DNA of 64,000 bases from an uncultured Sandaracinus sp. Its GTDB lineage: Bacteria > Myxococcota_A > Polyangia > Polyangiales > Houyiibacteriaceae. Each line of letters opens with the position of its first letter. The stretch's first letter is position 1. The notes below the pieces were generated by a model. That model made no database searches. It saw only the letters and a program-made list of their open reading frames with translations, and had not been told where the DNA came from. The stretch spans positions 4,555-68,554 of the forward strand of contig CAYXAP010000026.1 in NCBI GenBank assembly GCA_964462035.1. Reading direction: 5' to 3'. Positions 14,193 through 41,277 of the stretch are shown one piece after another. A program made the translations under genes and the position numbers.

Positions 14193-14253
14193 AGGCAAAT
14201 GAAGCGAGCCCTCCGGCCGTCCATGTCGGAGCCCGACTCAGGAGTCACTTTCG

Positions 14254-15597
14254 ATGCGAACCCGCGCCCTACTCTTCGCCCCCCTACTCAGCGTCATTCT
14301 CAGCGGTTGTCCCGTCTGGGGAGACGACGGCCCCGACGACGTCATGCCGTGCGTCGGCATCGGCTGCGCCTGCTTCGACGATTCGGACTGCCTCAGCAGC
14401 GAAGTCTGCGGGCCGGACGACTTCTGCATCCCCGACGACACCCCGTGTGCCGCGGACAGCGACTGCCGTAGCGGAGAGATCTGCGAAGCGGGCGCCTGCG
14501 TGCCCGAAGACGCCTGCGTTCGAGACACCGACTGCGGGTCGAGCGAGATCTGCGAAGGTGGCGCCTGCGTGCCGGTCGACGAGTGTCGACGCGACAGCGA
14601 GTGTGCCGCGGGCGAGCTCTGCGAAGCAGGCGCCTGCGTGCCCGAAGCGGGCTGCGTCCGAGACAGCGACTGCGCCTCCACCGAGATCTGTGAGGGCGGG
14701 CTCTGCGTGCCGGAGTCGGGCTGCTTGCGCGACACCGACTGCGCGACCGGCGAGCTCTGCGAAGCCGGCGCCTGCGTCCCCGAGGCGGACTGCCGCCGCG
14801 ACAGCGACTGCGGGACCGGCGAGCTCTGCGAGGCTGGGGTCTGCGTGCCGGACACCACCATCGAGAACTGCCGCACCCATGGCGACTGCGAGGTCGGCGA
14901 GTACTGCGACGGAGCGACCGACCTCTGCACTCCGAGCGGCACCTGCGCGGACGACTCCGAGTGCGCCACGGATTTCTACTGCGACTTCCGCGGCACCTGC
15001 GTCCCGGAGGCCCCCAACAGCTGCCGCACCACCGCGGACTGCACTGGTGACGAGCGCTGCATCGAGGGCTTCTGCCGGGCGCCGACCGACACCTGCCAGT
15101 TCGAGTACGAGTGTGGCCCTGGCGCCGCCTGCGTGAACGCCGGCTGCACCGAGATCTGCACCGGCGACGCGGACTGCCCCTCCGGCACCGCCTGCATCGG
15201 CAACTTCTGCCGGCCCACCACCGAGTGCACCTCGACCAGCGACTGCGGGTCCGGCGAGCACTGCGTCGACGCCCGCTGCCTCCCCGACTGTGAGGGTGGC
15301 GGTACCTGCAGCGGCGACGACTACTGCGGCGACGACGACTTCTGCCGCCCCGACTGGCGACGGGACCCGTTCTGCTCGGACGACGACGACTGCGCGGTCG
15401 GCAGCGTCTGCGTGGACGGCGCCTGCCGCACCCCGTGCCCGACCGGCACCGACGACGAGTGCCGGATGGCCGACGCCCTCCTGCCCGTCTGCGACACCGA
15501 CAACCTCTGCTACTCGACCACGGAGACCGCTCCGGAGTGCGAGACCGAGGACATGTGCGGCGCCGGCGAAAGCTGCGTGAACGCCATCTGCCGCTGA
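14254..15597 (+). CDS. Cysteine-rich repeat lipoprotein (CxxDxDC-type repeats)
   Basis: Lipobox ILSG-C; nearly the whole mature protein is C-xx-D-x-[DE]-C-xxxxx-C-xxxx-C repeats. Confidence 0.88.
   Translation: MRTRALLFAPLLSVILSGCPVWGDDGPDDVMPCVGIGCACFDDSDCLSSEVCGPDDFCIPDDTPCAADSDCRSGEICEAGACVPEDACVRDTDCGSSEICEGGACVPVDECRRDSECAAGELCEAGACVPEAGCVRDSDCASTEICEGGLCVPESGCLRDTDCATGELCEAGACVPEADCRRDSDCGTGELCEAGVCVPDTTIENCRTHGDCEVGEYCDGATDLCTPSGTCADDSECATDFYCDFRGTCVPEAPNSCRTTADCTGDERCIEGFCRAPTDTCQFEYECGPGAACVNAGCTEICTGDADCPSGTACIGNFCRPTTECTSTSDCGSGEHCVDARCLPDCEGGGTCSGDDYCGDDDFCRPDWRRDPFCSDDDDCAVGSVCVDGACRTPCPTGTDDECRMADALLPVCDTDNLCYSTTETAPECETEDMCGAGESCVNAICR
14446..14859 (+). repeat. Six tandem 69-bp (23-aa) coding repeats
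   Basis: Units such as CVRDTDCGSSEICEGGACVPVDE and CRRDSECAAGELCEAGACVPEAG. Confidence 0.85.
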
Positions 15598-36583: not shown

Positions 36584-37720
36584 TCAGCGGTGGAGGATGA
36601 ACTCCACCCGCCGGTTGCGGGCGTGGCACTCGCGCGAGTCCTCCGCGCAGCGGGTCTGGGTGTCGCCGAACGAGCGACTCTCGATCCGCTGCGGCGCGAC
36701 GCCGCACATGACCAGCTGCTCCGCCACGGACCCAGCACGCATCGCTCCGAGTCGGTGGTTGCCCGCGGCCGTCCCCTCTTCGTCGGCGTGGCCGATGACC
36801 CCGAGCCGCGCCTGGGGCGCGCTCGCCATCAGCGCGCAGACCTCCTCGATGGCGTCGCGATAGCGGGGCGAGACCCGGTCGGAGCCGGAGCGAAAGCCGA
36901 CGGTCTGGGGGAGCGACTCGCCAGGGTCCGGCTCCTGCACGATCGTCGCCGGCTCCGGCGCCGGCGCTTCGTCCGGGCAGCCGTCATCGTCCTGGAAGCC
37001 GTTGCGGGTCTCGGCGAGGTCCGGGCAGCCATCGGCCGCGTCCGGGTACCCGTCGCCATCGTTGTCGTCCTCCGGGCACCCATCCGCGTCCTCGAAACCG
37101 TCGGCGTCCTCGGCGCTCTCGGGGCAATCGTCGCGCTCGTCGTCGAGCCCATCGCCGTCGGTGTCGGCGGGCGCCGGCGCAGGGTCGGGCTCGTCGGACG
37201 CGACCATCCGGAGAGTCAGCGAGAGGCCCACCCGCAGGAAGCGAGCGTCGGCGCCGATGGGCTGGTCGTTCGGCTGGACGATGTGCGCGTAGCGGACGAA
37301 GGGGCCGAAGCCGACCATTCGGTGAGGAAAGAAGGTCCAGCCCGCGCCGACGTCGAAGGTCACCCGCGCGAGCCCACCGGTCAGCCCGAAGCCCGCGTTG
37401 GCATCGACGAAGGGCCCACCCACGAAGCCATCGTCGAGCTCGAAGAGGCCGCGGAGACCCAGAGTCACGGCGTGGAGGTTCCCTGGGTCCTGGTCGGCCA
37501 CCGGGAACCAGCTGGTGCCGTAGCCCAGCTGCAGGGAGAGCGGCCCCGCCAAGGTGAGCCCGACGCGCACGGCCCCACCCCCACCCCAGCGGAAGCGATC
37601 GTAGCGCTCGGTCAGCGCCCGGTCGGCGTGGCCCTCGACGTGAACCACCGGGAGCACCTGCGCCTGGGCGACCGAGCCGAGCGCGAGGGCTGCGACGAAC
37701 GCCATGGCAACGGCTCTCAT
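36584..37720 (-). CDS. OmpA-family protein: beta-barrel + thrombospondin type-3 repeats + OmpA-C (TraB-like architecture)
   Basis: Signal peptide; barrel strands; DTDGDGLDDERDDCP..DGFEDADGCP repeats; GHADEEG..NHRLGAMRA..RNRRVEF; ATGA overlap with the upstream gene. Confidence 0.9.
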   Translation of the reverse strand: MRAVAMAFVAALALGSVAQAQVLPVVHVEGHADRALTERYDRFRWGGGGAVRVGLTLAGPLSLQLGYGTSWFPVADQDPGNLHAVTLGLRGLFELDDGFVGGPFVDANAGFGLTGGLARVTFDVGAGWTFFPHRMVGFGPFVRYAHIVQPNDQPIGADARFLRVGLSLTLRMVASDEPDPAPAPADTDGDGLDDERDDCPESAEDADGFEDADGCPEDDNDGDGYPDAADGCPDLAETRNGFQDDDGCPDEAPAPEPATIVQEPDPGESLPQTVGFRSGSDRVSPRYRDAIEEVCALMASAPQARLGVIGHADEEGTAAGNHRLGAMRAGSVAEQLVMCGVAPQRIESRSFGDTQTRCAEDSRECHARNRRVEFILHR

Positions 37721-40700
37721 CGGGAGATGCTCAACGAGTAGCGGGCACAGCTGGGCCCGGCGTTGGTCCGCCAAACGCGAACGAGGGCCGTGTTCGGCCA
37801 CCCGGTCCGCCGGGTGGAGCAGCCGGTGCCGCTGCCCGAGCAGGTGTCCTCGAAGGTCCAATCGGTGCGGGCGCCGGCGGTGCCGCCGCTCCCGCACGGG
37901 CCATTCCCGCTGCTGCACGACGTGCGGACGTCGAAGCGGAACACCCCGCCCTCGTTCGTGGCGAAACGGATCCGCGGCCGTCCGCTGCCGTGGCGGCGGA
38001 AGGTCGCACTCTCCGGGAAGCGGATGAGGAACCACTCCTCCTGACCCGCGAGCGGCAGGCGGCGGAGGTCGCTGCCGGTGCTACTGCCCGCGCCCAGCGT
38101 CCCGAGGTCGATGCGTGTGCCGCACGAGAGGGCGGAGGCCCCCGCGCACTCTCCGCCGCAGACCAGCTGACCGCTCGGGCAGGAGAGCTGACAGCTTCCA
38201 CCGGTGCAGATCTCACCCGGCCCGCACCCCACGCCACACCCGCCGCAGTGGCTGCGGTCCGTGCTCAAGTCGCGACAGACCCCCGAGCAGTTGGTCAGCC
38301 CAGCGGTGCAGCTCACCGTGCACGAACCCCCGGTGCACACCTGACCCGCCGGGCACGAGCTCCCGCAGCTCCCGCAGTGCAGCCGATCCGTGCTCAGGTC
38401 CCGGCAGACCCCGCTGCAGTTCGTCAGCCCCGCCCCGCAGCTCACGGTGCAGCTCCCCGCCGAGCACACCTGGCCGGCGCCGCAGGTCGCCCCGCATGCG
38501 CCGCAGTTGAGCCGGTCGGTGCTCAGGTCGCGGCAGGTCCCGGAGCAGTCGGTGAGGCCCGAGCCGCAGCTGACCGTGCACACGCCGCCCGAGCACACCT
38601 CGCCCGCAGCGCACGTCACGCCACAACCGCCGCAGTGGAAGCGGTCGCTGCCCAGGTCGCGGCAGACGCCGCCGCAGTTCGTCAGCCCCGACGTGCAGCT
38701 CACCGCGCAGCTACCGGAAGCGCAGACCTGACCCGCGCCGCAGGTGGTGCCGCACGAGCCGCAGTTCAATCGATCGGTGTCGAGGTCCCGGCACACACCG
38801 CCGCAGCTGGTCGTGCCACCCGCGCAGCTCGGCGTGCAGCCACCGCCCGAGCACACCTCACCGGCGCCGCAAGCGTTGCCGCAGGTGCCGCAGTTGCCCC
38901 GGTCGGTGCCGAGGTCCCGACACACACCGCCACAGTCCGCCAGGCCGGCGCCGCAGCTCACGGTGCACACCCCACCGGAGCAGACCTCGCCGGCTGCGCA
39001 AGAGACCCCGCAGCCCCCGCAGTTCGCCCGGTCGGTGGCGAGGTCGCGACACACGCCACCGCAATCCGTGGTCCCCGTGGTGCACGACACGGTGCAGGCT
39101 CCGGCTGAGCACACCTCGCCGGCACCGCAGAGAGCGTCGCACGCCCCGCAGTGGAAGCGGTCGGTCCCGAGGTCCCGACACACACCGCCGCAGTTCGTCA
39201 GCCCCGTCCCGCACGACACCTCACACGTGCCGCCCGAGCACACCTCACCAGCACCGCAGCTGACGCCACATCCACCGCAGTTCGCCCGGTCGGTCCCGAG
39301 GTCCCGACACACGCCACCGCAGTTGCTCAGCCCGCCGCCGCAGCTCACCGAGCACACGCCGGAGCTGCAGACTTCTCCCGCCCCACAGATCGTGCCGCAG
39401 GCCCCGCAGTGGTTGAGGTCGCTGGTCAGATCACGGCACACGCCGCCGCAATCGGTCAGCCCACCGCCACAGCTCACCGTGCACGACCCACCGGCGCAGA
39501 TCTCGCCGGCGCCGCAGCCCACGCCACAGCCACCGCAGTTGAGCCGGTCGTTGTCGAGGTCCCGGCACACGCCACCGCAGTTGGTCAGCCCCGCGCCGCA
39601 ACTCACCTCGCAGGTGCCCCCCACGCAACGCGTCCCCGCGAGGCAGACCATCCCGCAGCCACCGCAGTTGAGCGCGTCGTTGTCGAGGTCTCGGCACACG
39701 CCACCGCAGTCGGTCAGCCCCGCGGAACACGTCGTCGCGCACGCCCCCCCCGCGCAGACCTGACCGGCACCGCAGGCGTTGCCGCAGGCGCCGCAGTGGA
39801 GCCGGTCGTTCTCGAGGTCCCGGCAGACGCCACTGCAGCTGCTGAGGCCCATCCCACACGACACCTCGCACGTTCCTCCCGAACACACCTCGCCCGCGGC
39901 GCAGACCACATCGCAAGCACCGCAGTGGAGCCGATCGGTCGCCACGTCGCGACAGACGCCCGAGCAGTTCGTCAGGGCCGCGCCGCAGCTCACCTCGCAG
40001 GCACCGGCGACGCAGACCTCACCGGCCGCGCACGCGACCCCACAGCCGCCGCAGTTCGCGATGTCGCTGGCGGTGTCGCGGCACGCGGCGCCGCACTCCA
40101 CCAGGCCGGGCCCACAGGAGACCGCACACGCGCCCGCCGAGCAGACCTCGAACGAGCCGCAGACGGCGTCGCAGCCGCCGCAGTTGGACCCGTCGACGGC
40201 GAGGTCGCGGCAGACGCCACCGCAGTCGGTCAGCCCGGAGCCGCAGCTCACCTCGCACACGCCGACGCTGCACACCTCGCCGGCGCCACATGTGTTGCCG
40301 CAGGTCCCGCAGTTGGTCCGGTCATTGCCGAGGTCGCGACAGACGCCGCTGCATTCGGTGAGCCCGGCGCCGCAGCTGAGCTGACAGGAACCCGCCGAGC
40401 ACACCTCGCCCGCAGCACAGCCCGCGTTGCAGGCACCGCAGTGCAGTCGGTCCGTCGCCAGGTCGCGGCAGACACCGTCGCACTCTGCCAGACCACCCCC
40501 GCAGCTCACTTCGCAAGCGCCGGCGGAGCACACCTCGCCCGCCGCGCACGAGAGCCCGCACCCACCGCAGTTCGCGAGGTCGGTCGCGGGGTCTCGGCAG
40601 ACCCCATCGCAGTTGGTCAGTGCACCGCCGCACGTGGTCTCGCAGCTCCCCGAGCTGCACACGGTGCCCGCGTCGCAGGTCGCGTCACACGCGCCGCAGT

Positions 40701-41277
40701 GCTCTCGGTCCGACGCGAGGTCGGCGCAGCGGCCACCGCACTCGACTTGACCGGCCGGGCACGAGACCACGCAGGCACCGCCCTCGCAGATCTCGCCGGC
40801 GGCGCAGGCCGTCTCGCACGCGCCGCAGTTCTCCCGGTCGATGGCGAGGTCGGCGCAGTAGGGAGTCCCGTCCGCGAGCTCGCAGCGCTCGAGCACGCCT
40901 CCACAGGTGAGACCACACGCGCCCTCGCTGCAGACCTCACCATCCTCGCAAGGCGCCGCACAGCTACCGCAGTGGGCGCGGTCGGTGAGCGGATCGACGC
41001 AGAGGCCGTCGCAGAGGATCTGACCGGCCGGACATGAGGTCAGGCAGGCACCGTCGGCGCAGATCTCGCCCGGAGCGCACGCGAGCCCGCAACCGCCGCA
41101 GTGGTCGACATCCACCCGCACGTCGGCGCAGGCGCCCTCACAGACCAGCTCTCCGGCCTCGCAGAGCACCGCCATGTCGACCTCCCCGCCGACCAGCGGT
41201 TGGGCATCGCACCCAAACACGAGCGCGGCGAACGAGCTGGCCATGAAGAGACCCCAACCGCCGCGCACCCCCGCCAT
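37717..41277 (-). CDS. Giant Cys-rich repeat lipoprotein (STIG1/MXAN_6577-like repeats) with C-terminal tip domain
   Basis: Lipobox LVFG-C; 23 repeats of CxxGLTxCxGVCRDLxxDxxxCGxCGxxCxxGEVCSxGxCxVS; ~150-aa non-repeat C-terminus. Confidence 0.92.
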   Translation of the reverse strand: MAGVRGGWGLFMASSFAALVFGCDAQPLVGGEVDMAVLCEAGELVCEGACADVRVDVDHCGGCGLACAPGEICADGACLTSCPAGQILCDGLCVDPLTDRAHCGSCAAPCEDGEVCSEGACGLTCGGVLERCELADGTPYCADLAIDRENCGACETACAAGEICEGGACVVSCPAGQVECGGRCADLASDREHCGACDATCDAGTVCSSGSCETTCGGALTNCDGVCRDPATDLANCGGCGLSCAAGEVCSAGACEVSCGGGLAECDGVCRDLATDRLHCGACNAGCAAGEVCSAGSCQLSCGAGLTECSGVCRDLGNDRTNCGTCGNTCGAGEVCSVGVCEVSCGSGLTDCGGVCRDLAVDGSNCGGCDAVCGSFEVCSAGACAVSCGPGLVECGAACRDTASDIANCGGCGVACAAGEVCVAGACEVSCGAALTNCSGVCRDVATDRLHCGACDVVCAAGEVCSGGTCEVSCGMGLSSCSGVCRDLENDRLHCGACGNACGAGQVCAGGACATTCSAGLTDCGGVCRDLDNDALNCGGCGMVCLAGTRCVGGTCEVSCGAGLTNCGGVCRDLDNDRLNCGGCGVGCGAGEICAGGSCTVSCGGGLTDCGGVCRDLTSDLNHCGACGTICGAGEVCSSGVCSVSCGGGLSNCGGVCRDLGTDRANCGGCGVSCGAGEVCSGGTCEVSCGTGLTNCGGVCRDLGTDRFHCGACDALCGAGEVCSAGACTVSCTTGTTDCGGVCRDLATDRANCGGCGVSCAAGEVCSGGVCTVSCGAGLADCGGVCRDLGTDRGNCGTCGNACGAGEVCSGGGCTPSCAGGTTSCGGVCRDLDTDRLNCGSCGTTCGAGQVCASGSCAVSCTSGLTNCGGVCRDLGSDRFHCGGCGVTCAAGEVCSGGVCTVSCGSGLTDCSGTCRDLSTDRLNCGACGATCGAGQVCSAGSCTVSCGAGLTNCSGVCRDLSTDRLHCGSCGSSCPAGQVCTGGSCTVSCTAGLTNCSGVCRDLSTDRSHCGGCGVGCGPGEICTGGSCQLSCPSGQLVCGGECAGASALSCGTRIDLGTLGAGSSTGSDLRRLPLAGQEEWFLIRFPESATFRRHGSGRPRIRFATNEGGVFRFDVRTSCSSGNGPCGSGGTAGARTDWTFEDTCSGSGTGCSTRRTGWPNTALVRVWRTNAGPSCARYSLSISR
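38182..41163 (-). repeat. 23 tandem ~129-bp (43-aa, 8-Cys) coding repeats
   Basis: Counted from the translation; repeat 3 carries a 5-aa insertion. Confidence 0.92.

Follow-up and report, generated by a model that had tools for sequence, protein, structure and literature searches.

A long-stalked lipoprotein and its small barrel partner in Sandaracinus: a likely subtype of a tag-linked myxobacterial gene cassette

Two overlapping genes lie on the reverse strand of a 64,000-nucleotide stretch of DNA, here called the window, from an uncultured Sandaracinus sp. (GenBank assembly GCA_964462035.1, contig CAYXAP010000026.1, positions 4,555 to 68,554; source genome 9.18 Mb, 69.6% G+C). One encodes a cysteine-rich stalk lipoprotein, the other a partner with a small outer-membrane β-barrel, thrombospondin type 3 (TSP3)-like repeats and an OmpA-like C-terminal domain (OmpA-C). 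We favour, with moderate confidence, the reading that the barrel grips a short hydrophobic tag beside the lipid anchor and ties a surface-exposed stalk to peptidoglycan, and that the pair is a subtype of a cassette widespread among myxobacteria. This reading builds on direct observations: the genes for barrel and tagged lipoprotein are coupled, the tag recurs, the modelled domains have recognizable folds, and stalks and tips are exchanged. The preliminary description of the locus, which proposed a TraAB-like surface system, missed the general feature, namely that an N-terminal tag is conserved throughout a family of cassettes whose stalks and tips are swappable.

The tagged lipoprotein and barrel cassette

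The barrel is widely distributed. By itself it was matched in 31 of 41 relatives; within the order its profile had matches in 111 of 161 genomes, a tally that includes the profile-building genomes and one unpublished genome used for no other result. In a sample of the phylum the profile matched 28 of 201 genomes, 12 of the 28 outside the order, and a broader profile gathered 1097 clusters at 50% identity. The 150 distinct loci examined were mostly top-ranked, and the fractions that follow are enriched accordingly; 60 new loci were fetched from the best of the order-wide matches, with 115 weaker matches outside the sample. On curation, 116 loci have an adjacent lipoprotein carrying a hydrophobic tag directly after the lipid-bearing cysteine, a count that includes four looser forms of the tag, among them one at a distance of 1.9 kb. 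Twelve others lie within 600 bases of the locus end, and 22 are without a tagged neighbour. A stricter automated test found the tag at 98 of 150 barrel loci and in 43 of 5000 random 1.3-kb intervals of the source genome; this null frequency (0.9%) rules out chance neighbourhood of barrel and tagged lipoprotein.

Most tags follow C-x(1-7)-[PA][ILV]VG, for example C-x2-4-P[IL]VG, and those of the ice-binding group read C-G-x-Q-[LV]-V-E-F or -V-G-W. The barrel gene may come first, the lipoprotein gene may come first, or the two may be divergent. In the largest subtype (type I, n=74), the barrel is followed by a lipoprotein with 1–3 Stig1 repeats (7 in one) and a 210-residue domain, and the tag stands only two residues ahead of the first cysteine of the first repeat. 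Big_5 stalks with ice-binding-like tips form a subtype of 25; a scan of nine of these partners confirmed PF11999 in eight, and the rest were placed here by their tag and, for complete genes, by likeness at the C-terminus. Ten loci combine a long stalk with a tail that is propeller-like or of another kind, five correspond to the present pair, and two are Big_9/cadherin-like. The tag thus also occurs on partners other than Stig1 proteins, that is on Big_5 and ice-binding (PF11999), Big_9/cadherin and other cysteine-repeat proteins. One barrel clade (SH-aLRT 99) spans Stig1/propeller, cadherin and ice-binding partners. Tag and barrel stay while the stalk (Stig1, Big_5 or cadherin-like) and the tip (PPC-like, ice-binding or propeller-like) are exchanged.

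Controls within the source genome agree with this pairing. Both of its barrels of this family stand beside tagged lipoproteins. Among its 19 Stig1 open reading frames (ORFs), two were flagged with the tag, both barrel-paired, and for eight no lipobox was called; the other 17 have no such barrel on their own contig and none was flagged. A loose form of the tag is present in 7 of 962 loosely called lipoproteins, two of the seven beside a barrel. The preliminary description had cautioned that OmpA-TSP3 paralogues are common in myxobacteria; this caveat is answered, since eight other TSP3-OmpA paralogues of the genome have no cysteine-rich neighbour on the same strand. Among the best 150 matches listed for five other genomes (150 weaker ones lie beyond them), nine cover the tag positions. 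Eight of these, which are the top eight, are barrel-adjacent, and the ninth overlaps another repeat match. As a separate observation, 268 of the 962 loosely called lipoproteins start C-G-D-D after the lipobox; the barrel-paired ones do not. This acidic start recalls the Bacteroidetes export signal.

Residue conservation points to the predicted outer rim of the barrel. Across 221 aligned barrels, the positions conserved beyond the core glycines, a proline and R70 include those predicted to lie at this rim: PQ..F in loop 1, G60, T94-G95 with R99 in loop 3, and Q129 with D138 (the Q..D of loop 4). The outer-turn threonine T94 is retained by 114 of the 115 paired barrels but by 12 of the 22 unpaired ones; for the loop-1 glutamine the counts are 89 of 115 and 8 of 22. 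These counts are descriptive because kin genomes are not independent. Core residues G107, P120 and G145 are kept in paired and unpaired barrels alike.

Several further loci touch on the cassette. The source genome holds a second copy (G000:C23:108510-111292, plus strand), with the barrel first and then a lipoprotein with three Stig1 repeats and a 210-residue C-terminal domain. In most families of the order this type-I form is near single-copy, and no Pfam or NCBIfam name was found for its C-terminal domain. PF11999 lipoproteins with Big_5 stalks stand beside the same barrel-OmpA family at L198, L199, L200, L202, L206, L210, L142 and L143; no mention of OmpA was found in the searched passages of one genomic-context paper on DUF3494. 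A tagged lipoprotein followed by a barrel-OmpA gene also occurs in L217, a record titled Spirochaetales MAG, a label outside Myxococcota. The unpaired barrels L152, L157 and L163 of family f16 are divergent to tandem 660-residue lipoproteins with about 99 cysteines and without the tag.

The gene pair in the window

The features of the pair are collected in table 1. As first described, the lipoprotein has a lipobox, 23 cysteine-rich repeats and a C-terminal tip. It contains 194 cysteines in total. Its signal peptide ends F-G-C23, and the orthologues have the lipoboxes L-A-A-C, L-V-A-C and L-T-A-C. The repeats occupy residues 38–1031, and 21 of the 23 are exactly 43 residues long with eight cysteines; units 2 (48 residues, nine cysteines) and 3 (43 residues, seven cysteines) have a five-residue insertion in common. 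A region of 155 residues follows. Pfam Stig1 matches the stalk in 23 stretches (E 1e-98; 324 bits, cut-off 24) and NCBIfam NF041328 (MXAN_6577-like) reaches 868 bits (cut-off 100). On these profile scores, both above curated cut-offs, the stalk belongs to the NF041328/Stig1 repeat family.

Table 1. Features of the gene pair, in window coordinates.
Feature	Position	Strand	Evidence
Partner gene, 378 residues (P0002): signal peptide, barrel, TSP3-like repeats, OmpA-C	36584..37720	-	sequence and family matches
Predicted eight-stranded outer-membrane β-barrel, NspA/OmpA fold	37208..37660	-	model
Acidic thrombospondin type 3-like repeats	36971..37165	-	sequence; Pfam TSP_3 weak
OmpA-C peptidoglycan-binding domain (PF00691)	36611..36895	-	Pfam
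ATGA stop-start overlap, putative translational coupling	37717..37720	-	sequence
Stalk lipoprotein gene, 1186 residues (P0001)	37717..41277	-	ORF and family matches
Lipoprotein signal peptide with lipobox Cys23	41209..41277	-	sequence; lipobox also in orthologues
N-terminal tag after the lipid-bearing Cys, residues 23–32, C-D-A-Q-P-L-V-G-G-E	41182..41211	-	common to barrel-adjacent lipoproteins
23 tandem Stig1 (PF04885)/MXAN_6577-like (NF041328) repeats, predicted disulfide-stiffened stalk	38185..41166	-	family matches
C-terminal tip: partial repeat and about 140 residues, predicted PPC/collagen-binding-type β-sandwich	37720..38184	-	model

The TGA of the stalk gene (37719-37717) overlaps the ATG of the partner gene (37720), as the preliminary description stated. 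OmpA-C is matched in the partner at E 2e-16. TSP_3 is weak there (E 0.027, under the cut-off) and above the cut-off in homologues. TSP3 repeats bind calcium. The barrel was modelled with eight strands over about 150 residues (pLDDT 92); its closest folds are NspA (Z 17.6, root-mean-square deviation (rmsd) 2.2 Å over 144 residues), OprF (Z 15.6) and OmpA (Z 15.5), and PF13505 is above its cut-off in the homologue L066. The model thus makes the partner an OmpA-like eight-stranded barrel of the PF13505 type with a periplasmic OmpA-C. The barrel that had been claimed is there, in a small eight-stranded form unlike that of TraB, a distinction that the preliminary description did not draw. Its strands are glycine-rich, and a PDB sequence search with the barrel profile gave nothing significant. 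Complex prediction with the barrel and the N-terminal 60 residues of the lipoprotein gave an ipSAE of 0.02 (mark 0.32), which is evidence for neither side. No natural fusion of barrel and lipoprotein was seen in seven long matches and two long ORFs. A search of the locus gave no sigma-70-like promoter and terminator-like sites only at chance level. A search aimed at longer barrel homologues gave at least five matches. Two homologues (P0008; L063:909-3350) have unusual layouts: one has three tandem barrels ahead of TSP3-OmpA, and the other is a long protein that lacks OmpA-C and ends in the barrel.

The tip model is less certain (pLDDT 77). Its best fold match is a clostridial collagen-binding domain of ColG/ColH (Z 9.7, rmsd 2.6 Å over 102 residues), followed by other ColG/ColH domains (Z 9.5 and 9.0) and a PPC domain (Z 8.5), at rmsd 2.6–2.7 Å; the periplasmic lysozyme inhibitor PliG scores Z 8.9. 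The comparison with the Atlas PPC cluster gave 0.89, and Foldseek returned no match at E 0.001. No sequence-family match, PF04151 included, was found for the tip in Pfam, NCBIfam or the PDB, and a PDB search with the tip profile gave nothing significant. The model is therefore consistent with a PPC/collagen-binding fold at modest scores, and this says nothing about function.

The tip is present in 14 of 41 relatives and is a mobile module, carried also by lipoproteins without a barrel neighbour. Small stand-alone tip lipoproteins (about 210–290 residues) occur, and the tip also ends cysteine-rich lipoproteins of about 790–980 residues with MopE-type motifs; none of either kind is beside a barrel (G000:C78:28008-29765; L023, L025, L029-L032, L035-L037, L039).

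Conservation of the exact pair

The preliminary description proposed that conservation of the pair be examined, and it holds in five genomes of two families and at five metagenome loci. A lipoprotein with 23–28 repeats and this tip lies directly upstream of the barrel in G000, G001 and G015 (family f1) and in G084 and G064 (family f21). Stop and start codons overlap in all five, as ATGA in G001, G084 and G064 and as TTGA in G015. All five metagenome loci, which were found by an alignment scan (a single-sequence scan gave no match), have the exact pair; one is nearly identical to G084, two have the same tip, and the stalks reach up to 30 repeats. The five barrels of the exact pair form one clade (SH-aLRT 99) in a tree made by a quick method with SH-aLRT support only.

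Two congeneric species share 91% identity in the tip, 88% in the barrel, 89% in OmpA-C and 88% in the last repeats. Between genera the tip (45–63%) diverges slightly more than the barrel (53–65%). In this between-species sample, with its one congeneric comparison, the sequences give no sign of tip hypervariability. The lipoprotein of the source genome (here type III) is nearer to that of G084, of the other family (63% in the tip and 72% in the first repeats), than to that of G015, of its own (48% in the tip and 43% in the first repeats), which hints at transfer or hidden paralogy.

Relation to TraAB and other systems

The likeness to TraA/TraB is an overlapping bicistronic operon, stalk gene first, that joins a cysteine-rich stalk to a peptidoglycan-anchoring barrel-TSP3-OmpA partner. 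The features described as defining TraA are a variable domain of the PA14-like type, TIGR04201 repeats and MYXO-CTERM (PMC3325183, PMC6372800). The TraB model (NF033763) reaches 83.2 bits on the partner against a cut-off of 700 and aligns only over profile positions 313–497, in TSP3/OmpA, which leaves some 300 N-terminal TraB positions unmatched where the present protein has its small barrel. The PA14-like domain (TIGR04566) was not found on the stalk lipoprotein at E 0.1, and the repeats start at residue 38. TIGR04201 has 11 matches in the genome, none in the stalk gene; MYXO-CTERM has 57, none on the contig. With these four defining features absent (TraB barrel, PA14-like domain, TIGR04201, MYXO-CTERM), TraAB membership was rejected. 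Searches for the TraA N-terminal domain in six genomes, the source genome included, were blank, as were their positive controls. The stalk protein thus differs from TraA in its N-terminal lipobox, in its Stig1 repeats, as the preliminary description had seen for anchor and repeat type, and in bearing a PPC-like C-terminal tip without sign of polymorphism in place of an N-terminal variable domain. The analogy drawn there, as kin recognition or membrane exchange, is not supported, given the different barrel, repeat and anchor and a tip no more variable than its surroundings in the one congeneric comparison. Elsewhere in the window (14203-15597, plus strand) lies a cysteine-rich lipoprotein with 72 cysteines, whose 23-residue tandem repeats match TraA-type TIGR04201.

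Other systems share single aspects. CglB with the GltA/B/H/K/C platform is likewise a surface lipoprotein adhesin reported to be retained by barrels that do not export it (PMC9946355); here there is a single dedicated barrel with its own OmpA-C anchor, partners share a tag and have swappable stalks and tips, and motor genes were not observed beside the pair. In RcsF-OmpA of E. coli a lipoprotein is bound to an eight-stranded barrel and OmpA-C protein, as is proposed here; RcsF is a small sensor on the periplasmic domain, whereas the present lipoprotein is a very long repeat protein encoded beside its barrel. The Bacteroidetes lipoprotein export signal (LES) is also a short, position-dependent motif after the lipid-bearing cysteine, described as acidic and general (PMC5080379), whereas the present tag is hydrophobic and goes with a neighbouring barrel gene. 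NF041328/Stig1 proteins share the repeat; the family name is silent on barrel and tag, and 17 of the 19 such ORFs in the genome are unpaired. Clostridial collagen-binding/PPC domains share the tip fold at less than 17% identity, and no peptidase is attached here. The likeness to immunoglobulin (Ig)-stalked DUF3494 ice adhesins lies in sister cassettes, where true PF11999 tips stand on Big_5 stalks. For Slam or type XI-like dedicated exporters, the modelled barrel size argues against a channel. Searches of the open literature listed no paper on the barrel family, the tag or MXAN_6577. The two-gene cassette is apparently undescribed; partnerships of barrels with surface lipoproteins are already a known kind.

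Proposed mechanism and alternatives

On the favoured reading, the lipoprotein would reach the outer face of the outer membrane by a general route; stalk length and adhesion-type tips suggest a surface location. The outer rim of the barrel would hold the short hydrophobic tag beside the lipid anchor. The TSP3 linker and OmpA-C would tie the barrel to the cell wall, so that pulling forces may pass to peptidoglycan and the stalk be retained. The 23 disulfide-rich repeats would hold out the PPC/collagen-binding-like tip, whose partner is probably foreign (a protein, a polymer or a prey surface) and not another copy of the tip. CglB is reported to surface without the GltA, GltB and GltH barrels and to need GltA and GltB to stay cell-associated (PMC9946355). 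Surface tethering is further supported by the role of cell-tethering adhesin attributed to Ig-stalked ice-binding proteins (PMC9957290). Of the suggestion that the OmpA partner exports or tethers the stalk, tethering is the best reading; export through the barrel is unlikely for a closed eight-stranded barrel.

Several points weigh against this picture. Co-occurrence shows that the genes are coupled, not that their products touch, and kin genomes are not independent observations. Twelve of the 22 barrels without a tagged neighbour, among the 150 loci, keep T94. Many long Stig1 lipoproteins have no barrel, and a barrel adjoins only 2 of 20 fetched tip loci, the other tip lipoproteins being barrel-free; stalk display is therefore not always barrel-dependent. 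Tip fold scores (Z 8.5–9.7) are modest and tied with periplasmic PliG, and the membrane orientation of the rim derives from topology. A bolder version can be put forward only tentatively: a tag-coded display system of Myxococcota, in which a dedicated barrel reads a lipoprotein code, is required for display or holding, couples to peptidoglycan and accepts any stalk or tip.

The main rival, which we regard as unlikely, takes the tag as an export signal and the barrel as needed to surface the lipoprotein, through its lumen or by co-assembly at the β-barrel assembly machinery (BAM). The position-fixed motif by which the Bacteroidetes LES is described to work (PMC5080379) lends it weight, and one barrel per cargo, overlapping genes and glycine-rich strands would suit a dedicated exporter. 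Yet OmpA's barrel, eight-stranded like this one, was judged to be without an open channel for the RcsF linker (PMC7553776), and the source genome commonly has long Stig1 lipoproteins that lack both tag and barrel. TraA and TraB are each reported to reach the outer membrane independently of the other (PMC12045341). Passage through the barrel is less likely given this closed OmpA barrel, this independent localization and the surfacing of CglB without its barrels. A clearly smaller chance attaches to a periplasm-facing lipoprotein that binds the OmpA-C/TSP3 part of its partner in an envelope-stiffening or sensing complex, as RcsF is reported to bind OmpA's C-terminal domain (PMC7553776). The PliG-like tip (Z 8.9) and the short core type-I partners, with their 1–3 repeats, would fit such a complex; stalks of up to 30 repeats, tips with ice-binding and cadherin-like adhesion modules, partner-linked conservation at the predicted outer rim, and several paired barrels in which TSP3 was not detected would not.

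Self-recognition of the TraAB kind, with tips binding each other on kin cells and barrel-OmpA transmitting force for adhesion or outer-membrane exchange, is more improbable still. It draws on a shared logic, a cysteine stalk and barrel-TSP3-OmpA in an overlapping operon (PMC6372800, PMC12045341), on the somewhat greater divergence of tips between genera, and on the blank TraA N-terminal search in the source genome, where the positive control was blank too. It is opposed by the low TraB score (83 against 700 bits), the lack of any TraA-type domain, repeat or anchor, the tip identity of 91% between congeners against 88–89% elsewhere in the pair, the recurrence of one tip at two separate metagenome loci, and sister cassettes whose ice-binding tips imply foreign ligands. 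We give the least credence to co-regulated envelope genes whose products do not touch, the tag serving elsewhere, for instance in sorting or in folding of the first repeat. The two-residue distance between type-I tag and first repeat would allow this, but the tag is kept where stalks are unrelated and spacers vary, it accompanies the barrel whatever the gene order, and rim residues relax where the partner is missing.

Implications

Work on CglB (PMC9946355) states as open the question of how lipoproteins of myxobacteria get to the cell surface and remain there. The cassette offers a minimal two-gene system in which both the candidate code, about five residues long, and the candidate residues of the barrel are open to direct mutation, and it could serve as a compact surface-display module. 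Its recognition corrects a tempting TraAB annotation of such pairs. If the tag-coded display system is real, the type-I pair would be a conserved, unstudied component of the envelope or of predation. For a range of large, unannotated repeat proteins and of ice-binding proteins in this mostly uncultured order, the cassette is a likely anchoring route.

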